Shown: positions 3,001 through 64,000, counted from the first letter of the stretch. The stretch: DNA of 64,000 bases from an uncultured Rikenellaceae bacterium (GCA_964410385.1 CAYPHL010000001.1:5485-69484); one strand, 5' to 3'. Notes: generated by a model from the sequence alone, not told the origin. A program made the numbers and translations.

Positions 3001-4506
3001 CAGCTTTTTAAATATCTGTGCATTCCCGATGGATCTCATTGAAAGTAAATAGTTGGTTGCCATCGGGATGAACATCAAAGCCACGGCTAATGAAACAAAT
3101 AGTGTGGAAATAATTGACACTCCGATATTTTTCCCTATTATTCTTATAAGGTAACCTGATGTGAAAATGAAGGGCATGAAAACTATAACAGTCGTCAGGG
3201 TAGATGCAACAATAGCTCTTATAACCTCTGTTGTCCCCTGTTTTACAGAAGTTTCGGTATCTTTACCCGATCCTGCGAGCCTGTAAATATTTTCAAGGAC
3301 AACAACGGAATTGTCGACCAGCATTCCGACAGCCAGTGCTATCCCGACTAGGGTCAGGCTGTTGATTGAAATACCGGTGGCATAAAAGAAGTTAAAGGCT
3401 GTATAGACTGAGACAGGTATTGAAACAGCAATTATTGAAACAAGCCTGAAATTCCTGAGGAAGAACCATAATATAAGGATTGCCAGAAATCCTCCTGTAA
3501 TGGCAAGATTGATTATCTGGTTTATATTTTCTTCCATTGTTTCCGCCCCATTATACTGGACAACTATCTCAACACCCTGAGGAGTCATCTCCCTGTTTAT
3601 TTTATTTATTTCAGAGAGGGCACTATTTGATAGTTTTATAAGGTTAGCCTGGTTGTCATTTACAAGGTTTATTGTAACAGCATCCATTCCGTTAACCCTG
3701 CTGAAAGAAGTCTCTTCCCTGACGCCATAAAATATTTCGGCAATATCTCTCAGGAGTACCGGTCCTTCCTGTCTTACAATTATCCTGCCTATATCCCCGA
3801 CATCTGTATATTCGGATGTAATGTTCACAAAGAACTCGTTGCTCCCGTCTACAACTTTCCCTGCGAAAGTCTTTTCCTTCCCGTTATTATTCAACAGAGT
3901 TCTTACCTGACCCATTGTGATACCGTTTGCCTTGCAGGCACGTTCATCAAGCCTTACCTCAATTGAGTTTTCCTGACCGCCATATACCTGGACACCGGCA
4001 ATACCGTCGATGTTTTCAAGCTTCGGTTTTATTTCCCTGTCGGCAATGTTCCTGATCCTGTCAACACCTCCTTCACCCCTTATCTGAAGTGACATGAACT
4101 GATTTATCATCTGGTCGAGATCGATCCTTATCACACTGATCAGGAAATCTTCGGGGATTGAATTCTTTACCACGTCAATCTTCTCCTGGAGCTTGAGGCT
4201 GGCATACTTCAGATCGGCCTTCTGCGCATAATAAATTGTTATTACACCGAAATTTGATGTGATGTTTGTTTCGATCTTTTCAATATCGTCAAGAGTCCCG
4301 ATAGCCCCTTCAAGGGGGATTACCGCCTGGGTCTCTATATAAGCCGGGTCCATTTCAAGTGGAGTTCCTACTCTTACAATAAGTGTCGGCAGCTCGGGAT
4401 TAGGGATTAATTCGACAGGTAGTTTCTTATAAGAGACATAACCGAGCATTGTGAGCCCGGCGAACAGCATAATTATCAGGATCCTTCTTTTTAGAATAAA
4501 GTCCAT
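1..4506 (-). CDS. RND (AcrB/HAE1-type) efflux permease fused in frame to an extra 6-TM block and an ABC-transporter ATPase domain; C-terminus lies beyond the window (>=1502 codons)
   Basis: ATG at 4506..4504, 17 nt after the stop of the upstream RND gene. Hand translation of the minus strand (codon first bases at positions divisible by 3); triplets 1-1680 checked one by one with no stop, the rest read through once with none seen. Missing from the ORF track only because no stop lies in the window. The first ~1035 aa are RND-like (MDFILKRRILIIMLFAGLTMLGYVSYKKLPVELIPN..., ...VVNNGIILIDYTNILRKRGNRRSRALMMAGVARIRPILITASTTVIAMIPLAMG...). Hydrophobic helices follow at ~1390-710. Then Walker A GPNGAGKT (543..520), signature SGGMKQR (240..220), Walker B ILVVDEP (183..163) and H-loop STH (81..73). 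Confidence 0.8.
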   Translation of the reverse strand, partial: MDFILKRRILIIMLFAGLTMLGYVSYKKLPVELIPNPELPTLIVRVGTPLEMDPAYIETQAVIPLEGAIGTLDDIEKIETNITSNFGVITIYYAQKADLKYASLKLQEKIDVVKNSIPEDFLISVIRIDLDQMINQFMSLQIRGEGGVDRIRNIADREIKPKLENIDGIAGVQVYGGQENSIEVRLDERACKANGITMGQVRTLLNNNGKEKTFAGKVVDGSNEFFVNITSEYTDVGDIGRIIVRQEGPVLLRDIAEIFYGVREETSFSRVNGMDAVTINLVNDNQANLIKLSNSALSEINKINREMTPQGVEIVVQYNGAETMEENINQIINLAITGGFLAILILWFFLRNFRLVSIIAVSIPVSVYTAFNFFYATGISINSLTLVGIALAVGMLVDNSVVVLENIYRLAGSGKDTETSVKQGTTEVIRAIVASTLTTVIVFMPFIFTSGYLIRIIGKNIGVSIISTLFVSLAVALMFIPMATNYLLSMRSIGNAQIFKKLSIHDRLIQAYFLILKASMKKPAATIIGTLVIFFAALLISLTLSISSSSEIETPDFRLSVNMPTGSTLEKTDAVVAEIESRLASVPEKEDIVSRIGEDNATVTISLKEDWDKESKKSLPEIKNEILEKTKNISSAAISMDNISTSGGFTSSGDGVETVNPGSGFMRMLGIGRESESIIIKGQDFGQMKDLADDIRTNVDELESIDNISVNVQDNKPEVQLHFDMDYIARNNFSLINLSSALATFGREYSSGAVFRQGNERYDIIIKYASADTLEDKNTDKSIDDLKRLEVSNSAGAIMEMDELAGIIFAYGMGNIHRENQEKRVTVTYSFKSEISSSKDLLDGARSEIESVIAGLAIPSGIAVEVVHEEDQFREFYKLIGIAFLLIFMILAAVFESLTLPFVLLFSIPLAALGSLIALILTGNSLLNANTLMGFLILLGVVVNNGIILIDYTNILRKRGNRRSRALMMAGVARIRPILITASTTVIAMIPLAMGKAEFVSVIGASFAVTVIGGLTLSTLLTLVFIPTFYSGLENALDWLRSLDWKNKILQLGIFALLIFLIYTRIDKFVWKLITTILSVIIVPASAWFIMNSLRKARETVIPPDEEINIRVQSLVKIYERENRWAREWKAGARIRERLGLEKKITSWQDLTRISWQLPLFGFMIYFTYFYLNKGFWIFWFSIASWFFLSAIWSRFRELLISMTNRGEKGLLKKMIPPIDFLVFWIIPLLNLVFFQIKWDNLAVVLILGFLWFTGLFIYKTGVMLSGENIDIYRLEGRFKGLRKTIYKIVSAVPLIGKKKKPFKALSCVSLNIGNGMFGLLGPNGAGKTTLMRIICGILEQSYGKVWINGLDTQKKREELQGLIGYLPQEFGSYENMTAHEYLHYLAMLKNIIDAATREERVTYVLKAVHMEERRHEKISSYSGGMKQRMGIAQILLHLPRILVVDEPTAGLDPRERIRFRNLLVELSRERVIIFSTHIIEDISSSCNQVAVLNKGKLRYLG

Positions 4507-4523: not shown

Positions 4524-7500
4524 TTACCCGGGAATGGTCAGAGATTTACTTTTCCCCGTAATATAATTGCTGAAATTAGCGAAGATCCAGTATACACAAG
4601 GTATCACAACCATGGTAAGCAGTGTTGATGATACCAGTCCACCTATTACTGCAAGCGCCATGGGGGCTCTGAGAGAAGCGCTTTCACCAATGCCTATTGT
4701 CAGAGGCAGAAGTGCGAGGATCGTGGTAAGACTTGTCATTAGTATAGGACGAATCCTCTGTGATCCTCCGAGAACTACAGCTTCCCTAATATCCATTCCT
4801 TCCGCCCTCAGCTGGTTGATGCGGTCAATAAGTATAATAGCATTATTGACTGCAATCCCTCCAAGCATGATTATTCCGATATATGCCATCATGTTGAGTG
4901 ATTGGCCAAGAATTATAAAAGTGAGAACCGTTCCGACACCGGCAAGAGGGATCGTAAGCATTATTATGAAAGGTTGAATTAATGATTCAAACTGTGCGGC
5001 AAGTACCATGAATACCAGAACAAGTGAGAGCGTAAGGGCAAAGGTGAGGTTGGACATGGAATCGCGTCGTTTCAGTTCTTCTCCTGTATACTCCATTTTG
5101 TAATCCACCGGAAGTGCTATCTTCTTCAGAGAGGCATCGGAGTACTTTATTACCTTGTCAAAGGCCAGGGCGGGACTGACCATTGCGTAGATATAACAGG
5201 TTCTTGACTGATTCCTGCGGGTAATCTCCCGTGGACTGACAACAGTCTTTATTTCAGCCAGTTCGCTTAAAGGGACCTTTACATTGCCCGCAGTTATCAT
5301 CAGGTCGTGAAGTTGATTGATTGAAACATCTCCCAGTTTAATTGTAATGTCCTTAAGCTCTCCATCCTTTTCGAAATTTCCCGCTGATGATCCTTCAAGA
5401 TAGCTTTTTACCTGGTTAATAACACTTTCTACCGAAACATTGTATAAGCTTGTCTTAAAGCGGTCGACTGCAACTTCTACTTCCGGTGTCCCTTCATCGA
5501 TTGATGTTGATAAATTATATAAGCCGGGATTTTTCTCCAGGATCAGTCTGGCTTCATTGATTATTCTTTCAAGTTCTTCATAATCTTCACCGGAGATTTC
5601 AAGTGCAAAAGGCGATTCTGAGGTTCCCAGGACACTCTGAAGCGCTGTCTCATCTCTTGTGAATGACACTTCCAGTCCGGGGACTGATTTCAGGTATGTA
5701 TCAACCAGTGTGATTGCACTTTCTGTTTCCCGGGCATATTCTTCCTTTAAGATAACTTTCAGGGATGCACTGTTCTCACCCCTGACCGTCGTTGTCTGGT
5801 TTAGGGCGGAAGACTTGTCTTCCCCTGCCTGAGTGTAAATCAGTTCAATCTTATCTCCAAGAAGCCCTCTTATAATTCCTTCAGCAGCTGATGCAGTTGT
5901 ATAAGTTCTGTCAAGACTTGTTCCTTCAGGCAGAGAAAGGCCCACGGTGAACTGGGCCGACTCTGCCCTTGGCATGAATTCGCTTCCCAGCCGGGGGATC
6001 AGCAAAGCAGTTCCGGCCATCAGCAATACAGACAGTATGACTACCAGATAACGTTTTTCGATTATTCTCCTGAGAACATTTGTGTACCATGTGAACTTCA
6101 GAGGCGCACTGATCCTTCTTTCCCTGGTTTTTTTCGAAAAGAAAGTTGATACAAGCATCGGTATCACCAGCATAGCAACGAAAAGGGATGATATAAGTGC
6201 GAAAGCCACTGTCCACGCCTGGTCCCTGAACATTTCTCCTGATGCACCATGAAGGTAAACAATAGGCAGAAAGACAACTATTGTCGTAATAGTTGAGGCT
6301 GTAATCGCTCCCCCTACCTGCCCGGTCCCGGTTATAACAGCTTCTTTCAGGGGCATCCCGTCTTCATGGTTCCTGGTTATGTTCTCAAGAACAACAATGG
6401 CATTGTCGACAAGCATACCGGCTCCCAGAGCAAGACCTCCCAGCGTCATAATGTTAAGTGAAAGATCTCCGAAATACATCAGATTAAATGTAGCAATTAC
6501 CGAAACCGGTATTGCCACACTTATTACAAGTGTTGTTCCTATCCTGCGGAGGAAAATATAAAGCACCAGCACAGCAAGAAAGATCCCCAGGAGAAGGGTG
6601 TTCTTTACTTCTCCAATTGAGTTATTAATAAAAGTACCCTGATCGGCAACCTTAATGAATTCATAACCTGGTAATGCCCTTCCAAGAGCATCAATTGCCT
6701 CATCAAGGCTCTTAACGGCATCTACAGTATTGTATTTCGGTTCCTTGTAAACAGACAGACCGATACACCTTTCGCCGTTTATTGTTACAATGTTCTCGGC
6801 ATCCTTATTTGCAAATCCAACTTTCGCTATATCCCTTAAATAAACAGGTACACGGGTTGAGGCTGAGGTTGAGGTTGAGGCTGAGGCTGAGGTTGAGGCG
6901 GATTGTCTGAAGCCTACAATAATGTTTTCAAGATCCCTCAGGTCTTCAAGTACACTTACACCCTTGACAACGTACTTGGTCCCCATTTCAACTATGGAAC
7001 CGCCCGACACATTTCTGTTATAATTACTTATCTGTGCGGCAATACCGTCAGGGGTAAGCCCGAATGATTCCAGAAGGTAATCGCTCGTCTCAATAACTAC
7101 TTCACTTTCTTCTTTTCCTGTGATCCTCACGTCAGCTACTCCCTCTATCCTTATAATCTCATTACGGATATAATTTTCAGCAACTTTCCTCAGTTCATCC
7201 ATATCAGAAATCTGGTCGTTCTTTAATCCGACGATCATCACAGGGGATGCATTCGGATCATACTGTGAAATTGTAAAATCTTCGAGGTCTGAATTCTGGC
7301 TGAATGAGTTAAGTTCTTTCTGAAGATCGAGGAAAGCTTCGTCCATATCCTTGTTCCAGTTATATTCAACAGTTATTGTTGCGGAACCGGCCTTTGACAC
7401 TGAGGAGACCTGAATCACATCACTCTGCCTCATTGCAAGTGATTCTATCTGATCGACATAGTTTTTTTCTATTTCTTCAGGAGGTTTTTCACCGGATGAA

Positions 7501-58092: not shown

Positions 58093-58168
58093 GGTCCCGT
58101 AGTTCAATGGATAGAATGACAGATTCCGGTTCTGTTGGTTGAGAGTTCGAGTCTCTCCGGGATCACCA
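58093..58168 (+). tRNA. tRNA-Arg (anticodon CCG), CCA encoded
   Basis: Hand-folded cloverleaf. Acceptor GGTCCCG/CGGGATC, D-arm GTTC/GAAT, anticodon stem ACAGA/TCTGT with loop TTCCGGT, T-arm GAGAG-TTCGAGT-CTCTC, discriminator A, then CCA. Confidence 0.9.
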
Positions 58169-58203: not shown

Positions 58204-58626
58204 CTAAGGTAAAATCCGTTTAAAGACATAGTAGAATATCCTCTTGTAGGCGCTTCCCTGATCCTGCCATTCACTTGTGAAATCCATCGTAAGCGAATTT
58301 TCAGTTACTACGAACTTCGCTCCCCTTGTGTTATTTCCTTCAATCAGTGAAAAAACGTCATCCTCAACCTTCCAGCCCCAGGTTTTATCAAGGCTGCTGT
58401 ATTTATAAGTTTTACAGGTTCCGCCATCAAGAATTTCCATTACGAATTCTTCTGATTTATAAGTATAGGTTGAATCGTGGACAAGCTGATTGTTCTTATA
58501 ATCTACAGTTCGTTCGGAAATTCCTTCCCACTGACCAAGTATCAGATCGGATTCCTCCTTCTCGCAACTTGTAAAAGAAACCAGCAGTAACAGGAAGAGG
58601 AATATAGCTGATGACAGTTTTTTCAT
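58204..58626 (-). CDS. Hypothetical lipoprotein (lipocalin-like size)
   Basis: Lipobox signal MKKLSSAIFLFLLLLVSFTSC. 140 aa, beta-rich, with no recognisable motif. Confidence 0.6.
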   Translation of the reverse strand: MKKLSSAIFLFLLLLVSFTSCEKEESDLILGQWEGISERTVDYKNNQLVHDSTYTYKSEEFVMEILDGGTCKTYKYSSLDKTWGWKVEDDVFSLIEGNNTRGAKFVVTENSLTMDFTSEWQDQGSAYKRIFYYVFKRILP

Positions 58627-58663: not shown

Positions 58664-59233
58664 TTACAACTGCAGCAATCCCGGCGAATTAAGGATCCTC
58701 ATCTGTTTTCTTCTCAGGCTGATAAGATCCTTTAATTCGATAGCCATATTTTCATTGACCTCTTCAGCCATCGGGAGTACGTATTTCTCTGTCTGATCCA
58801 GATATTCACACATCTTCTTTCTTTCGTACTGATCGCGGTGAAGATCAGTAAGATTGCTTATCCTGTCAGCAACCTTTAGTATTTTAGCATTTGTGGATCC
58901 GTGCTCGAGGATTCTCTTAAGGTAGGTTGTTTTGGACATTCCCTTCGGCCTGGTTACCTCGAGAACCAGATCAACAACCTGATTTGCCTGATTATCAATG
59001 GAACGGATTTCATCCTCATTGGTTTCCGGTATGTCCTCGAACAGGTCATGGATCACGGAAGCTTTCAGAAGTACGTAGTTATCAAATAGTTTATAATCAA
59101 AAATTATTCCCATTGTAGCTATTTGATGTCTGAACATATTTCCCCCGGTCACCCTGCGCTTACCTATCAGGGCTGTTGCTTTGATTATATAAGGAGCCAG
59201 TACAAGGTTTCTTAATTTTTCTGTTGCGTCCAT
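58664..59233 (-). CDS. HD-domain hydrolase of the RelA/SpoT (Mesh1/small alarmone hydrolase-like, HD_4) type
   Basis: FRHQIATMGI…ASVIHDLFEDIPE…VVDLVLEVT…AKILKVADRISNLTDL reproduces the H…HDxxED…D…N pattern of RSH hydrolase domains. Confidence 0.7.
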   Translation of the reverse strand: MDATEKLRNLVLAPYIIKATALIGKRRVTGGNMFRHQIATMGIIFDYKLFDNYVLLKASVIHDLFEDIPETNEDEIRSIDNQANQVVDLVLEVTRPKGMSKTTYLKRILEHGSTNAKILKVADRISNLTDLHRDQYERKKMCEYLDQTEKYVLPMAEEVNENMAIELKDLISLRRKQMRILNSPGLLQL

Positions 59234-59306
59234 CGGATTATAAGTTTAGTGATGTAAATTTATTAAAATTGAATGAAGTGTTTCTTTTTAGCTGTTCAGA
59301 ACAGAT

Positions 59307-59768
59307 TCAGCCCATTCTGGCAAGGATGACCTTCCAGATATTTTCAGTCATTTTGTCGAGTTTAATATCTGACTCTGATTTCAATAACCGGGCTTTGATG
59401 AAGTAGTCCCTGGATTTTTTATCATCGCCCCTGTAATGAAGGTTTATAAGTGCAATAAGCAACCGGATAGCTGCTTCCGGATCATCCCCGGCTCTTGCCA
59501 GGGCTTTCGTAAGGATTGATTCAGCCTCTCCTACCATTCTGACTTCGGAAGCAATCATAATATCATTGACAAGAACAGAGATAAGAATCTTTTCCTGTGC
59601 TTCATCCAGGCGAAATCCTTTTCTCCATAGCAGAATGATGTCAGCAGGAGTGGGTTTCTTACGTTTCGCGTCCCGGTACAAAAGTGAATCTAAAGGGATA
59701 TCATCAAAATAGATCTCCTTTCTGTGAAGGTGTTCTTCAAAAGGTTCAGGATGATCGAAATCGTCCAT
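59307..59768 (-). CDS. Hypothetical 153-aa protein (predicted helical), operon partner of the 780-aa protein
   Basis: The ORF starts 2 nt after the upstream stop. No motif recognised. Confidence 0.55.
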   Translation of the reverse strand: MDDFDHPEPFEEHLHRKEIYFDDIPLDSLLYRDAKRKKPTPADIILLWRKGFRLDEAQEKILISVLVNDIMIASEVRMVGEAESILTKALARAGDDPEAAIRLLIALINLHYRGDDKKSRDYFIKARLLKSESDIKLDKMTENIWKVILARMG

Positions 59769-59770
59769 AT

Positions 59771-62113
59771 TCAGTAATTTTTTTGTTTTTTAAGTTGAAG
59801 TTGCATGTAAAGCGGTAAAAGCTCAAAATACTTGTCAGCCTTTTGTCCGATGGCTTTTTCTGCCTCAGGAGTGTAAGTGAGACCATCCGGATCGGAGGCC
59901 CTGAGCATTATTCTTCTTCGCATTTCCGATACAAGCTGATCCGGGAAATAGTTAAGGGGGAGAAAGTCAATGCTAATTTTTCTTCTTCTCGCTTCAGTGT
60001 TCAGTTTATCAGGTATCCTGAGGGTTTTCGGTCCAATAACAACAAAACGTTCTTTCGTGTAGGGGATGGCAATCTGGATCAGAGTAGTAATCCAGTCTTT
60101 ATCCGAAAGTTCCAGGTTGAAATGTCTTTTGTAATAGCTGATAAGTGATGAAATCGAGGTATCGGTCATCAGGGGGCAACAGTTATAATCATTGTCCTCA
60201 AGCCATTGTGCGGCCTGTCTGGCGTTAATACATGGATTTCCCAGCACCGTGTAGCCATCAAGAAGATCAAAGGAATCGATATGACCGCGCATCGACGGAG
60301 GGATTGCATATTTCTTTACTCTGCTTATACTTGAGATAAAGCATCTCCCCTTTGCATTTGTTAAATTTTCGAACCTGGATCTGTTTTTAACATTTCCGGC
60401 CAGGTTGGTTCCGGCTATAAGCAAGGACCATACCGATGCCGGATCAGTCTTATCTTCATCAAAAATGAATACTGTTGGTTCAGGATGCTTTCCGTCAGGG
60501 GTAAATACTTTCTTTTCGGCAGATGGCTTTTTTATCATGATTTTTTTATCGCCGCTTATTACTGACCTCATTGTGGCTTTAATATCCAGACCGTTATATA
60601 ATGATCCTTCGAAGACAGCAGGATAAGGTTCCTCAGATCGGGTCCGGGCAACCCTGGATGCTTCATAAGCCAGGCCGAAGGTCAAAGCTTCGCAGGGTGG
60701 CCATACCCAGACATAATAGTTGCTTTTATGGTACTTTCTGTTTGGATCATCAGCCCAGCTCCAGGCACCGGGAGGAACAGATGATATGGAATTTGAATTG
60801 TGATAACGCAGTGTAAATGATTCTTCCTGATAGCCCGGGATTGTGTATGATCCATAATTGTCTTTCGCCGAATCAGTCAGAAGGAAATGATCGATCCCGG
60901 TTTTTCTTTCCGTATCCTCGTCATCCCGGGGCATCCCCGAAAGGAGCGGCAGATCAGGGAACTGTTTAAGGGAAGCCCACGGCCTGTCGGTATTCATAAG
61001 CCTGGACATAAGTAAACCGTTAAAACTATCCGGCATCATGTTTTCACTACATTCCATGATATCAGCCATTGATGGAGAGTGGTGCTGGCGGATGATACTA
61101 ATATTTGCAAGCAAACGTTCAAAATCAGGTATCTTTTCCATGCAATTTTTACTACTTCCTTTAATGCCTGAATTGCCATATTCCCGGTAGTATTCCTCAT
61201 AAGTTGTGTCAAGTATTCCGCGGAATAATTTGTTTGTATCAGGTAAATCAAATCTGAATTTAAAATTTCTCCGTGGGAAATGACGGGATTTTTCATACAG
61301 GGTGGTCATTACAGGGTAAATATCCATAAAAGCCAGAGCCATTAAAGGATGTATGACGCTCCTTTGTAATTTCAGATTTAAAGTCGGGAAAAGAATTTCA
61401 GCCGGTCTGACTGCAGGGTCGGAAAGGAGTTCTTTGATTTTTACCCAGTGTGCTATTCCACCTGTGACAAGGATTTTTTTATAGATCTCTGATATTCTTT
61501 TAAGGCGTGCCGCCATCACGAATTCCCTGCGGCTGTCTACATAAAGATCTCTTGTTTCTGCAGCATGGTTTTCATTTCCCGACACATAATTCAGAAGATT
61601 GAATGATGAATGTACGGGTTCTTCAACAAGCAGGATTTTATCAGGTTTGGCCGACATCTCATCCATATCTATTCCAAAAACAGGGATGTCAAGTTCGACA
61701 GAACAACGTATGGCTTCAATTATCGAGTCTGTTGCTGAGAGTGCTACCAGATATTTACCTGAAAAATAAAGCAGCTTTTTCAGGAGATCAGCAGAAATAC
61801 CCGACAATGGTTTGTAAAGGTTTTCCTGGAGATTCATAGCATTTTTTGCAAGGTCGGGGTGGATAAATCTGTTTTCAATCAATAATCCAAGCATACAGGG
61901 CAGCCAGGTTCCCGCTCTTCTGCTTATTCCGAGTTCTTTCATCCAGGTTACCAGTTCAGCGACTATATGCGGACCAAGCTCGACAGCAATTGCTTCTGGT
62001 CTCGTTTCCCTGGCTGAGCACAGATAATTCACCTCTCTGGCAAAAACTGCACGGTTGTGAATTGCGGGTACTCCAATTATTTCGCTTCGGTTGATCTTTA
62101 TTATCGGATACAT
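59771..62113 (-). CDS. 780-aa protein with N-terminal TraB/PrgY/GumN/Tiki-like (possibly DUF5682-related) domain and an uncharacterised ~540-aa C-terminal region
   Basis: Residues 14-19 GVPAIH, 41-48 AIAVELGP, 195-204 RREFVMAARL and 218-222 GGIAH parallel the TraB-family motifs GTAH, VAVEL, ERDxxMA and GAGH. Starts 2 nt after the AAA+ stop. Confidence 0.6.
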   Translation of the reverse strand: MYPIIKINRSEIIGVPAIHNRAVFAREVNYLCSARETRPEAIAVELGPHIVAELVTWMKELGISRRAGTWLPCMLGLLIENRFIHPDLAKNAMNLQENLYKPLSGISADLLKKLLYFSGKYLVALSATDSIIEAIRCSVELDIPVFGIDMDEMSAKPDKILLVEEPVHSSFNLLNYVSGNENHAAETRDLYVDSRREFVMAARLKRISEIYKKILVTGGIAHWVKIKELLSDPAVRPAEILFPTLNLKLQRSVIHPLMALAFMDIYPVMTTLYEKSRHFPRRNFKFRFDLPDTNKLFRGILDTTYEEYYREYGNSGIKGSSKNCMEKIPDFERLLANISIIRQHHSPSMADIMECSENMMPDSFNGLLMSRLMNTDRPWASLKQFPDLPLLSGMPRDDEDTERKTGIDHFLLTDSAKDNYGSYTIPGYQEESFTLRYHNSNSISSVPPGAWSWADDPNRKYHKSNYYVWVWPPCEALTFGLAYEASRVARTRSEEPYPAVFEGSLYNGLDIKATMRSVISGDKKIMIKKPSAEKKVFTPDGKHPEPTVFIFDEDKTDPASVWSLLIAGTNLAGNVKNRSRFENLTNAKGRCFISSISRVKKYAIPPSMRGHIDSFDLLDGYTVLGNPCINARQAAQWLEDNDYNCCPLMTDTSISSLISYYKRHFNLELSDKDWITTLIQIAIPYTKERFVVIGPKTLRIPDKLNTEARRRKISIDFLPLNYFPDQLVSEMRRRIMLRASDPDGLTYTPEAEKAIGQKADKYFELLPLYMQLQLKKQKNY

Positions 62114-62115
62114 GG

Positions 62116-63036
62116 CTAATTTTTTATCAGGAAGCTGTCAGAAAACATTATTCTGAATGCCATTTTCAGATGTTCAGGCTTAATACCGGTATAAAAGTTG
62201 TGCAGGTCGATATTGAAAGGCTTATCCTGGCTGGATTCCAGCAGGCTGCCGGTGCCACCTGTTTTATCGAATACACTCAGTTTTGAGGCCCAGCCGAACA
62301 GGTAAATTGCATCACGGGGAGTTATACCTCCGGGTTTGCCTCCATGTTCCGTCCAGAGTGCCCAGAAAAGGTCGATGAGCTTATCGGTTTCATTCCTTAT
62401 GCCTTTACACTGGTCCCTGATTATGTTGTCTATCTCCTCCTTTGGAGGATATCGCAATGTTATGAGCGGGCGCATCCTGGAAAGGATGAACTCGGGGATC
62501 AGATTCAGATCAGCGGTATTTGTTGCCGCGACAAACCTGAATCCTGGATGCGCATGAATACGTTCGCCAAGAAGAGTGGAATCAATATATCTTCTTTCAT
62601 CCAGGACGCTTACAAGCAAGGCCAGTGCACGAGGCCTTATCTTTCCTATCTCATCAATGAAGCATATCCCGCCATTGTTCATTGCTGTGACAAGAGGTGA
62701 CAGAATATAATCCATAACTGAATTGTTATTGTCACTGAATCGTACCGTACAGGCAAGGTCCTCGGCGGTGACATCTTCATGACCCTGAAAAATATATAAT
62801 TGCCGGCCGGTTCTCCTGCTTATCTCATAGATCAGGCGGTTTTTGCCTGTCCCCGGTTCGCCGATCAGAAGAGGGCACATCGGGAGAGCATATTCACCGG
62901 CCATCCAGGCTGCGGTAAGCTGTCCTAATTCGGTTTCCCTTCCGAAAAACCCGTTGAAATACCTGTCCTGAGGAGAGAAAGGCTCACTCTGAAATACGGT
63001 TTTATTATTGATAATAAGCTTACGGTCGTTTGACAT
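62116..63036 (-). CDS. AAA+ ATPase (NtrC/MoxR/AAA_5-like core; no GAFTGA, no DNA-binding domain)
   Basis: Walker A GEPGTGKN (62862..62839), Walker B GICFIDEIG, sensor-1 FVAATNTADL, and Arg in ILSRMRP. The layout parallels the bEBP core in the same window (GESGTGKE…FLDEV…IAASN). Confidence 0.8.
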   Translation of the reverse strand: MSNDRKLIINNKTVFQSEPFSPQDRYFNGFFGRETELGQLTAAWMAGEYALPMCPLLIGEPGTGKNRLIYEISRRTGRQLYIFQGHEDVTAEDLACTVRFSDNNNSVMDYILSPLVTAMNNGGICFIDEIGKIRPRALALLVSVLDERRYIDSTLLGERIHAHPGFRFVAATNTADLNLIPEFILSRMRPLITLRYPPKEEIDNIIRDQCKGIRNETDKLIDLFWALWTEHGGKPGGITPRDAIYLFGWASKLSVFDKTGGTGSLLESSQDKPFNIDLHNFYTGIKPEHLKMAFRIMFSDSFLIKN

Positions 63037-63040
63037 ATCA

Positions 63041-64000
63041 TTAAATTTTGGATTTTTCAGGAAGCTGAAGCATTAATTTGTCTTTGTGGGAAGCCTGAGA
63101 CTGGCTTCCACGATTTATCTTAAACAGATCATGAATCAATCTGTAGTTGTTTTGCGATATAAGCAGGTGATCAGCATAACGGTTGTTCTCAGAAGTGTTG
63201 CTTTCTTTCCTTATTACTTTTATCTGTGACGGATCAGTCGAAAAGAACTCACCTGAATCCTCAGGTATAAATGCATATCCTTCCTCAAAAACAACCAATT
63301 TTCCTTTCAGCTTAATTTTGTCCGGTTCTTTTATGTCATATATCCATACCGGACCCTGATCTCCACCTGTCAAAACAAGGTCATTGACGATTATAACAGT
63401 CCACAAATAGTTACTATTAACGCAGGTGGAAGAGATCAGATCAAATTCAGGCAGCTTCCGGATATTCAATATGCCACCGGAATCAATACTGATAAATAAA
63501 TCGCGCTCAGGGCAGCAGATCATACTCTGGATTGTGAAATCATGACCTTTGAAAGAAGTCAGGTGGTTTTTACTGATATTGTATTTATATATTGTACCGG
63601 TTGTGCCTCCGAATACTATTGTTGCATGATCGGGCGATGCGATGGCCAGTATAGTTCCCAGTTCTTCATGGCAGAATATTTTCTGAATCATGCCTGAAGC
63701 ACAATCAATGATCTCAAAATTCCCGGTGTTCGAAACTGAATACAGGTGATTTTTTAAAAAAATACATGATCCTGCTCTTCTTGATCCGAGATGGTAACCA
63801 TTAAGCAATGTCAGCTTCTTCAGGGACCCATCTACCAAAGACCATTTCCTTATTGTGTTTGAGAAACGCTCAGGATCTTTATCAGAATCATAGGTATAAG
63901 AGTAAATATCTCCGGACTCTGCCGGGATATCGATCCAGGGACATCTTCCCATGCCGGGCTCCGTGAGTCTAAGGCGAAGGTTGAGTGTATTAAAATCCGT
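63041..64000 (-). CDS. WD40-like beta-propeller protein (N-terminus possibly beyond the window)
   Basis: WD-like repeats (FKGHDFTIQSMICCPERDLFISIDSGGILNIRKL; LTGGDQGPVWIYDI). The track starts it at ATG 63952, but the frame stays open to 64000 (…TDFNTLNLRLRLTEPG-MGRC…). Confidence 0.6.
   Translation of the reverse strand, partial: TDFNTLNLRLRLTEPGMGRCPWIDIPAESGDIYSYTYDSDKDPERFSNTIRKWSLVDGSLKKLTLLNGYHLGSRRAGSCIFLKNHLYSVSNTGNFEIIDCASGMIQKIFCHEELGTILAIASPDHATIVFGGTTGTIYKYNISKNHLTSFKGHDFTIQSMICCPERDLFISIDSGGILNIRKLPEFDLISSTCVNSNYLWTVIIVNDLVLTGGDQGPVWIYDIKEPDKIKLKGKLVVFEEGYAFIPEDSGEFFSTDPSQIKVIRKESNTSENNRYADHLLISQNNYRLIHDLFKINRGSQSQASHKDKLMLQLPEKSKI

Follow-up and report, generated by a model that had tools for sequence, protein, structure and literature searches.

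A widespread AAA_5 ATPase module with a TraB/Tiki-like partner protein, and its possible part in conflict or threat response

What holds together a run of five closely packed genes at the edge of a 64,000-nt stretch of DNA from an uncultured Rikenellaceae bacterium (GCA_964410385.1, CAYPHL010000001.1:5485-69484; the whole stretch is called the window), and do all five belong to one system? A preliminary description had taken the run for an uncharacterized operon encoding a WD40 beta-propeller, a deviant AAA+ ATPase, a 780-residue protein with a TraB/Tiki-like head, a 153-residue helical protein and a SpoT-type HD hydrolase. Re-calling the open reading frames (ORFs) returns the same five genes at the same coordinates (Table 1), contiguous on the minus strand and with spacers of 4, 2, 2 and 73 nt in the order WD40, ATPase, 780-residue protein, 153-residue protein and HD. 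A fixed five-gene system is not what other genomes hold. The conserved core consists of three genes, encoding an ATPase with a GKN Walker A motif, the TraB-like 780-residue protein and a third protein, T3, to which the 153-residue protein corresponds in part; as a trio they are cytoplasmic and without annotation. The WD40 gene (with an upstream partner) and the HD gene are clade-specific. Our analysis suggests, at about even confidence, that the window carries one lineage's version of a widespread ternary module whose likeliest role would be in conflict or threat response.

A conserved core of three genes

A scan with one genome per species gives 62 loci, in Bacteroidales/Rikenellaceae, delta-proteobacterial lineages, Nitrospirota, Acidobacteriota, Planctomycetota, Verrucomicrobiota, Omnitrophota, Hydrogenedentota, Armatimonadota and Chromatiaceae. 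Almost all loci derive from metagenome bins; the Chromatiaceae carriers include the cultured Thiocapsa marina 5811 and Lamprocystis purpurea DSM 4197. The comparison drew on 45 non-redundant loci, which span more than 12 phyla and each encode a homologue of 700 residues or more, at 25–79% identity (locus numbers of the form L001 are ours). The preliminary description had proposed linkage of the ATPase and 780-residue genes across genomes as a check, and the linkage holds throughout: an AAA_5 gene lies directly upstream of the 780-residue gene in all 45 loci, 37 times as found by the ORF caller and eight times as recovered by tblastn. T3 is present in 41 loci, called downstream in 33 and added by a six-frame hidden Markov model search in eight, in one of them upstream. 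The loci in which the ORF caller missed the ATPase or T3 are mostly non-Bacteroidales. Conservation of the core spans Bacteroidales, Desulfobacterota, Nitrospirota, Acidobacteriota, Planctomycetota, Verrucomicrobiota, Omnitrophota, Hydrogenedentota and Chromatiaceae, and the gaps within it are mostly 1–20 nt, often 1–4 nt, or the genes overlap. That functionally unrelated genes lie side by side by chance is hardly credible: such an order, kept at 25–79% identity, refutes it for the three-gene core, and only the doubtful status of the HD gene and of a lipoprotein gene beyond it speaks on its side.

The 780-residue family is large. A word-indexed search returns 180 homologues, all 'hypothetical' or unnamed, and an exhaustive representative search returns 843 clusters at 50% identity (E ≤ 1e-3); the 150 matches listed from the exhaustive search are all close family, with no bridge to known families. 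The 780-residue protein has no match in Pfam, NCBIfam, PADLOC or PHROGs. Between L002 and L009, identity is 59% for the ATPase, 39% for the 780-residue protein, 23% for T3 and 68% for the HD protein. Among all the proteins encoded, T3, the WD40 protein and U445 (the upstream partner of the WD40 protein) diverge fastest, the ATPase and the HD protein slowest. Divergent copies occur within single metagenome-assembled genomes (MAGs), with two to three loci each in CAIYES01, JADJEQ01 and JAFGIY01. In some Bacteroidales MAGs (L050, L051 and L023) the 780-residue, ATPase or WD40 genes are split into several ORFs, which are either decaying copies or assembly frameshifts.

Predicted architecture of the core proteins

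The AlphaFold2 model of the 780-residue protein, built from 74 homologues, has a mean predicted local distance difference test score (pLDDT) of 88. Its head (residues 1–265) carries conserved H19, E45, D129, E133, R136, D149, R196, E197 and H222. In alignments of 74 and 56 diverse members, H19, E45, E197, E133, H222, R196 and R136 do not vary or are kept at 90% or more. The motifs follow the order seen in TraB/Tiki proteins (xxH, RPdAiaVELGP, TDSIIEAIRCA..L..PVyGvD and RRE..MAARLK...vLfTgGlAHW). Members of the TIKI superfamily share, by definition, an alpha/beta core, a 2His/2Glu site and an Arg close to it (PMC6254334); the head has the 2His/2Glu set and a basic residue, their catalytic placement being judged by motif order, without superposition. 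In structural searches with Foldseek the head is matched best by 'TraB family protein [Marseillevirus]' in BFVD (probability 0.99, E 2.7e-3) and, in the PDB, by chain 7w5z_E (probability 0.90, E 6.7e-3, 384 residues); this chain belongs to Tetrahymena complex IV, which contains COXTT5, a 385-residue 'TraB family protein'. TraB_PrgY_gumN is the sole recurrent Pfam signal, found in nine of 56 family members (best E 7.7e-4) and always below threshold; a DUF5682 signal is seen in two of the 56, and both signals recur in five of nine shorter distant relatives. Alignment of the head with the N-terminal domain of DUF5682 (YehM) by hhalign covers 211 collinear columns (E = 1.1e-3, probability 20%), and full-length hhalign against YehM alone or against a 25-sequence DUF5682 alignment yields a motif of 35–45 columns only. 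These four independent lines agree in pointing, with weak to moderate strength, to a TraB/Tiki-type head. Characterized enzymes of the Tiki fold are peptidases (Tiki, RRSP) or esterases (Ere), and a site-specific peptidase is favoured for the head on that account.

Behind the head, residues ~267–375 are helical and residues ~376–464 form a variable, low-confidence stretch with few conserved columns, according to the model and the alignment. The C-terminal body (residues 465–780), modelled by itself, has a pLDDT of 93.7 and a predicted template modelling score of 0.87, and Foldseek finds no significant neighbour for it in the PDB (best E = 0.25, TM ~0.15). The structural search that the preliminary description had proposed divides: the head is nearest to TraB-family proteins, at marginal significance, and the body is without a PDB relative. 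A profile of the 780-residue protein finds nothing meaningful among PDB chain sequences, no vWA/MIDAS signature was found in the body, and the NorQD-complex chains 9qhe_G and 9qhf_G match it with a probability of 0.02–0.03. A hidden vWA, nuclease or nucleotide-binding domain was looked for in the body, and the separate model gave no significant PDB match; weak matches to ATCase, CD38 and Argonaute were set aside as generic Rossmann-like similarity. As to the vWA and SWIM domains that the preliminary description did not see, no such gene occurs in the window or in related operons.

T3 is mostly 300–385 residues long, with TPR matches in its C-terminal half. By jackhmmer the 153-residue protein of the window, in which TPR matches are weak, aligns to residues ~1–150 of the downstream partners elsewhere, so that it is taken to be the conserved N-terminal module alone, the TPR tail of T3 being absent. 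The spacer after its gene, at 73 nt, is too short for a decayed remnant of the tail. T3 has no match in the PDB, Pfam or PADLOC.

The ATPase matches Pfam AAA_5 with 84.6 bits against a cut-off of 22, and the bpMoxR model with E = 0.016 only. The closest solved relatives among PDB sequences are midasin (1e-27), NorQ (2e-16) and CbbQ (1e-13). By sequence its class is that of AAA_5 ATPases of the MoxR/NorQ/CbbQ/midasin type and not NtrC, the one domain call of the preliminary description that does not hold; the propeller, the AAA+ ATPase with deviant Walker A, the TraB/Tiki head, the helical small protein and the SpoT/Mesh1-type HD protein are all borne out. The Walker A motif reads GEPGTGKN (G59-EPGTGK65-N66) and departs from the canonical GxxxxGK[ST] in having Asn in place of Thr/Ser. 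GKN is found in 36 of 40 aligned family ATPases, the others (L055 and the sister group L060, L068 and L069) having GKT. Walker B (D128/E129, at the positions first given) and sensor-1 AATN are present in the window ATPase, as are the SR and PRD arginines, and icFiDEI, AATN, SRmrP and PRDai are kept at 90% or more in family ATPases. The protein is predicted to bind nucleotide and probably hydrolyses it, perhaps slowly in view of the Walker A Asn, which would fit a role as a switch. Against PADLOC-DB 2.0 it gives generic AAA matches only.

These relatives raise the possibility of a housekeeping chaperone or maturation module of the CbbQ-CbbO/NorQ-NorD type, in which ATPase and 780-residue adaptor would remodel or activate a single enzyme or complex of the cell and have no role in conflict. 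With NorQ and CbbQ so close, a window-clade locus stably syntenic beside leuS and of host-like G+C content, and no plasmid or phage copies, this has something to recommend it. However, there is no vWA/MIDAS partner and no constant client gene nearby, the neighbours differing per lineage; the module is patchily distributed over the phyla, with genomes that carry several paralogues and with decayed copies; and an adaptor would have no use for the full catalytic set that the 780-residue protein keeps. We consider such a module unlikely.

Two groups of distant relatives were also observed. In a sister family, TraB-like proteins of 608–647 residues are paired with a GKT AAA_5 ATPase (L060 27-9673, L068 789-9725 and L069); its loci are linked to an AddAB-like pair, a 989-residue PD-(D/E)XK protein and a 1,090-residue UvrD-helicase/PD-(D/E)XK protein, and also hold two unknown proteins of 265 and 373 residues. 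Since this family has an ATPase of its own, the ATPase/TraB-like dyad may be a general two-gene cassette. Asgard (Promethearchaeia) MAGs encode ~660-residue proteins (L063 4332-6329 and L070 1832-3820) whose N-terminal region matches the head of the family; the L063 protein has weak TraB and DUF5682 Pfam matches, the L070 protein none.

Accessory genes, regulation and flanks

The propeller ORF was described as open at the window edge, with a system that might extend further, and both points are confirmed. The WD40 frame is stop-free from an ATG at 63952 to base 64000. In L001, a near-identical contig (Logan SRR22184549) with the same 780-residue protein, the propeller is 422 residues long, and a further same-strand gene ends 30 nt upstream of its gene. 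The corresponding gene in the relative L002, where the 780-residue protein is 79% identical to that of the window, encodes U445, of 445 residues and without a Pfam match. Because the gene 5' of U445 in L002 is on the opposite strand, the operon of the window clade is taken to comprise U445, WD40, ATPase, 780-residue protein and 153-residue protein; the HD gene and a 140-residue lipoprotein gene follow downstream in L002. In the window the G+C content of the operon (0.40–0.47) equals that of the flanks. No membrane segment or signal peptide is found in any operon protein, the downstream lipoprotein alone having one. The propeller assignment derives from sub-threshold matches to Pfam models of the WD40 family, and the L002 orthologue has WDR55/THOC3/IFT122 propeller matches; U445 has no match in the PDB, Pfam or PADLOC. 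The WD40 protein is a clade-specific accessory and is always paired with U445; the pair lies 5' of the ATPase gene in eight Bacteroidales-type loci (L002, L012, L014, L017, L020, L023, L050 and L072).

Besides this pair, the core has gained other proteins in particular lineages only: the HD protein, a calcineurin-like phosphoesterase, DUF4062(NADase)-FGE-sulfatase proteins and a sigma-54 activator. DUF4062-FGE-sulfatase proteins of ~950–1030 residues, with DUF4062 N-terminal and FGE-sulfatase C-terminal, are encoded directly 5' of the ATPase gene in several non-Bacteroidales loci, and in L007/L008 and L030 the two genes overlap. Recent work on anti-phage systems identifies DUF4062 as a TIR-like NADase of such systems (10.64898/2026.05.01.722283; 10.64898/2026.09.04.749371). 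The middle of one such protein (L030 3984-7076, residues 578–673) weakly matches PADLOC PD-T4-6 models (E 7e-6). Further operon-linked genes encode a calcineurin-like phosphoesterase with a small propeller protein, a cREC receiver, and NB-ARC-WD40 or DUF4062-NACHT-TPR STAND proteins. In L073 (12417-14846) an 809-residue PPDK_N/PEP-utilizers protein, of phosphotransferase type, is encoded between the 780-residue homologue and T3 and overlaps both.

Flanking genes in other lineages encode TIR-TPR and SIR2 proteins, HEPN/nucleotidyltransferase and PIN toxin-antitoxin pairs, type I restriction enzymes or restriction-modification systems, a PLD nuclease-like protein and a VWA and Tubulin_2 pair. 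The check for defence islands proposed earlier gives a divided answer: immunity genes are often neighbours in other lineages, whereas the window clade sits among housekeeping genes. In L074 (14128-20821), 3' of one system, a TIR_2/gag-Asp-protease protein gene is followed by genes for VWA and 997-residue Tubulin_2 proteins, which look like a separate conflict system.

A sigma-54 activator of ~557 residues adjoins the operon in at least 11 loci and has RtcR/PspF-type models as its best PADLOC matches. The intergenic regions between activator and operon contain two to three (A/T)(G/C)TCAAC boxes and then a TGGCAY-N5-TTG-like element (-24/-12-like); the boxes and the loose -24/-12 elements were spotted by eye in the activator-linked loci, without statistics. 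A search with the strict sigma-54 consensus finds canonical sites 5' of the ATPase gene in L003 and L029 only. Activator, upstream boxes and elements, and RtcR/PspF likeness would all suit a sigma-54-controlled damage-response or repair operon like RtcR-RtcBA or PspF-psp, whose hydrolase would clear or process a damaged macromolecule under internal stress. However, sigma-54 control tells how an operon is switched on and not what it does, and is compatible with defence; the window clade has neither the activator nor its motifs; and repair is not what the associated NADase, TIR and STAND genes do. A repair operon seems to us improbable. Ahead of its first operon gene the window clade has a motif of another kind, TTTTCGTCAAGAATCATC / TTTTCGTCAA(G/T)AATC(A/C)TC. 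Scanning the region for sigma-70 promoters and terminators gives no excess over shuffled expectation.

The preliminary description had drawn attention to an alarmone-hydrolase-like HD enzyme. Its best PDB match is 7p1y, an 'HD domain-containing protein' of 232 residues (E = 4e-46), followed by HDDC3 (7e-08) and MESH1 (5e-07); 7p1y is solved and apparently unpublished, a literature search having found no paper on the entry. The catalytic set H...HD...ED...D...N aligns with HDDC3: H36, H62-D63 (as numbered in the preliminary description) and E66-D67 are present, and the VADRISN motif retains its Asp and Asn. Pfam HD_4 scores 21.8 bits, under the cut-off of 27.2, and many cluster homologues carry PF13328. 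Judged by these motifs and matches, the protein is a genuine RelA/SpoT-type enzyme (Mesh1/small-alarmone-hydrolase-like). Its membership in the system is doubtful. The family comprises 4,505 clusters at E ≤ 1e-10, ~25 times the 780-residue family in an equivalent search, and the close homologues (74–78% identity) that could be placed on long contigs stand alone among unrelated housekeeping genes (three of three). Outside Bacteroidales the gene is not linked to the core. Linkage is seen in the window and in eight other loci, each of Bacteroidales type, and among these it recurs over 780-residue lineages of 32–79% identity. For its large, mostly stand-alone family and its Bacteroidales-only linkage the HD protein is treated as a possible auxiliary and not as defining.

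One reading would put the HD protein at the centre of an operon for alarmone or nucleotide signalling, in which a signal would be made or sensed and then degraded by the SpoT-like enzyme. Its Mesh1/SpoT catalytic motifs are intact, an HD protein or calcineurin-like phosphoesterase recurs 3' of the core in Bacteroidales, and in L016 and L018 the HD and T3 genes have 4 nt in common. Against this stand the confined linkage and the size of the stand-alone family; no nucleotide synthetase or cyclase is recognized in the operon, and the 73-nt spacer 5' of the window HD gene holds a promoter-like match, in a region whose overall scan is not above chance. As the HD protein is stand-alone in all three sampled cases and the slowest-evolving of the gene set, alarmone hydrolysis is unlikely to be central, and an operon built around it is very improbable. 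The enzyme would be at most an auxiliary 'reset or safety' phosphohydrolase and may be a plain housekeeping neighbour.

The position of the operon 3' of tRNA-Arg and against leuS had been read as a classic site of accessory DNA. The two neighbours are there, with a gene omitted from that account between HD and tRNA. It encodes a lipoprotein (lipobox LLVSFTSC, weak lipocalin-like match) that is probably unrelated to the system and is kept beside HD in L002, L010, L012 and L018, with leuS next in L002 and L018, whose 780-residue proteins are 79% and 55% identical to that of the window. The tRNA-island reading is rejected on G+C content equal to the flanks, the HD-lipoprotein-leuS synteny of these relatives, the lipoprotein gene that separates operon and tRNA, and the lack of a plasmid or phage copy. 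No integrase is seen at the locus (flanking repeats were not searched, and the far end lies beyond the window). There is no sign of recent insertion.

Table 1. Features of the window and candidate regulatory regions in related loci.
Feature	Location	Strand	Basis or remark
WD40-type beta-propeller gene	63041..64000	-	3' 319 codons of 422-residue gene, cut by window edge
AAA_5 ATPase gene, 306 residues	62116..63036	-	Pfam AAA_5 match
780-residue protein gene	59771..62113	-	ORF call
780-residue protein, head, residues 1-265, TraB/Tiki-fold alpha/beta hydrolase-like (predicted)	61319..62113	-	conservation, AlphaFold2 model, Foldseek
780-residue protein, residues 266-464, helical middle then variable stretch	60722..61318	-	secondary structure, pLDDT
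780-residue protein, residues 465-780 and stop codon, two alpha/beta modules	59771..60721	-	separate domain model
153-residue helical protein gene (N-terminal module of T3)	59307..59768	-	jackhmmer
HD hydrolase gene, 189 residues, RelA/SpoT-type	58664..59233	-	PDB sequence matches
Lipoprotein gene, 140 residues, between HD gene and tRNA-Arg	58204-58626	-	ORF call
tRNA-Arg(CCG)	58093-58168	+	tRNA call
Candidate activator-site/promoter region	L009 8841-9080
Candidate activator-site/promoter region	L013 6879-7077
Candidate activator-site/promoter region	L015 1380-1576
Candidate activator-site/promoter region	L016 2207-2522
Candidate activator-site/promoter region	L020 4159-4335
Candidate activator-site/promoter region	L072 6135-6363
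Candidate activator-site/promoter region	L073 8671-9092		GGTTGAG
Window-clade motif site	L002 ~6270-6300
Window-clade motif site	L012 ~4255-4285
Window-clade motif site	L018 ~6950-6975

A putative conflict module and its known counterparts

The reading that we prefer is a conflict or threat-response module, analogous to the MoxR-vWA ternary systems but lacking the vWA protein. In the mechanism we propose, the ATPase ring would act as a nucleotide-dependent switch or remodeller and license the Tiki-type hydrolase head. Like Tiki and RRSP, the head would most probably be a site-specific peptidase. T3 would be a helical/TPR adaptor which, with lineage-specific sensors, couples the module to its trigger; the sensors would be U445 and the WD40 propeller in the window clade and the DUF4062-NADase/FGE-sulfatase proteins elsewhere. 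In many lineages expression would be under the dedicated sigma-54 activator. A conflict role is suggested by the DUF4062-FGE-sulfatase accessories, the immunity-gene neighbours, the paralogues and fragmented copies, the fast evolution of U445, the WD40 protein and T3, and an accessory pool like that of the MoxR-vWA systems, one of which has experimental support as a threat sensor. The narrower proposal that the trio is an immune module, its ATP-dependent switch freeing a cytosolic Tiki-fold peptidase when the WD40 or FGE-sulfatase protein senses its cue, is put forward tentatively, as a possibility that we hold to be less than even.

Several points weigh against a conflict role and the activity proposed for the head. 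The role is argued by guilt by association, uncorrected for background. No homologue of the system was found on plasmids or phages, the neighbours in the window clade are housekeeping genes (leuS, M23 peptidase, ACP/KAS), and beyond the hydrolase head the window version has no recognizable effector. Foldseek matches TraB proteins with marginal scores (E 3e-3 to 7e-3, TM 0.24–0.39), and 7w5z_E is identified with COXTT5 by its matching length only. The window protein has no Pfam match to PF01963 (TraB_PrgY_gumN), whose gathering score it does not reach, or to PF18934 (DUF5682), where it again stays under threshold. The Tiki fold also includes esterases and non-enzymes, and the Walker A Asn could make the ATPase a poor hydrolyser.

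The 780-residue family, large, broad and without a Pfam, NCBIfam, PHROGs or PADLOC model, is the central family of a previously undescribed system. With its partners, probable catalytic residues and Walker A change now defined, the system is directly testable, and Thiocapsa marina 5811 and Lamprocystis purpurea DSM 4197 are two cultured carriers on hand. Should the conflict reading be true, the module would be a new architecture among AAA+-gated immune systems and would tie the TraB/Tiki fold to regulated intracellular proteolysis. Should the immune reading hold, the module would be a vWA-independent counterpart of the MoxR ternary systems, and this would be the first case of the fold of the animal Wnt-regulating Tiki and mitochondrial TRABD serving as a regulated immune effector or signal processor.

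No catalogued defence system fits. PADLOC-DB 2.0 has no match for the 780-residue protein, T3 or U445, and the 153-residue protein, like the 780-residue one, is without a PADLOC, Pfam or NCBIfam match, so that the earlier statement that no described system has this composition is upheld. Parts of the locus do have known counterparts. The HD protein matches Mesh1 (HDDC3) and 7p1y and keeps the catalytic motifs. NorQ-NorD, CbbQ-CbbO and midasin provide the closest solved relatives of the ATPase, but NorQ-NorD and CbbQ-CbbO have a vWA/MIDAS partner and a defined metabolic client, whereas here there is no vWA, no constant client and a GKN Walker A. With the TIKI/TraB/PrgY/GumN superfamily (Tiki, RRSP, erythromycin esterases, ChaN, TRABD, COXTT5) the head would share the alpha/beta fold and the His/Glu/Arg constellation, and TraB-family proteins come first among its structural matches in two libraries. 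Unlike these, the 780-residue protein is cytoplasmic, lacking a signal peptide or membrane segment, stays below threshold in Pfam, is obligately paired with an AAA+ ATPase and has its head fused to a ~515-residue body without known relative.

The preliminary description had named the MoxR/DUF5682 clusters and AAA+ conflict systems as nearest analogies, and YehLMPQ/DUF5682 and the MoxR systems are indeed the closest. Escherichia coli YehL-YehM is the only annotated parallel for the pairing of an ATPase with a TraB-like protein. There, too, an AAA_5 ATPase gene lies directly 5' of that for a protein of ~760–790 residues, and the N-terminal ~250 residues of YehM/DUF5682 share collinear motifs with the head (xxH, RP..[VI].[VI]E.GP, an acidic helix then D, and RE..MA...G..H). 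The similarity is confined to the head, the C-terminal bodies being unrelated; YehL has a canonical GKS Walker A in place of GKN and is 27% identical to the window ATPase over 128 residues; no vWA (YehP) or SWIM (YehQ) gene occurs in the window or in related operons; and a DUF4132 partner is likewise absent. Both clusters are functionally uncharacterized, that of YehL-YehM(-YehP-YehQ) as well as the present one, and a literature search found no paper mentioning DUF5682. If the conflict reading is true, the module would, by analogy, give a first functional handle on YehL-YehM.

The MoxR-vWA-centred ternary conflict systems were catalogued by Kaur, Burroughs, Iyer and Aravind (2020; PMC7159879), together with an accessory pool of beta-propeller, FGS, calcineurin phosphoesterase and STAND proteins; the word 'TraB' is absent from that text and the present system is not mentioned there. 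One such module, the MoxR-vWA-propeller module of the Esr pathway, has experimental support as a threat sensor (PMC13622651). Unlike those systems, the module described here has a TraB-like enzyme as partner, no vWA match in its core proteins and no VMAP or iSTAND. What it shares with them is a three-protein core round a MoxR-class AAA+ ATPase, several copies per genome, and a lineage-variable set of accessories that includes propeller, FGE-sulfatase/FGS, calcineurin phosphoesterase, TIR-like and STAND proteins.

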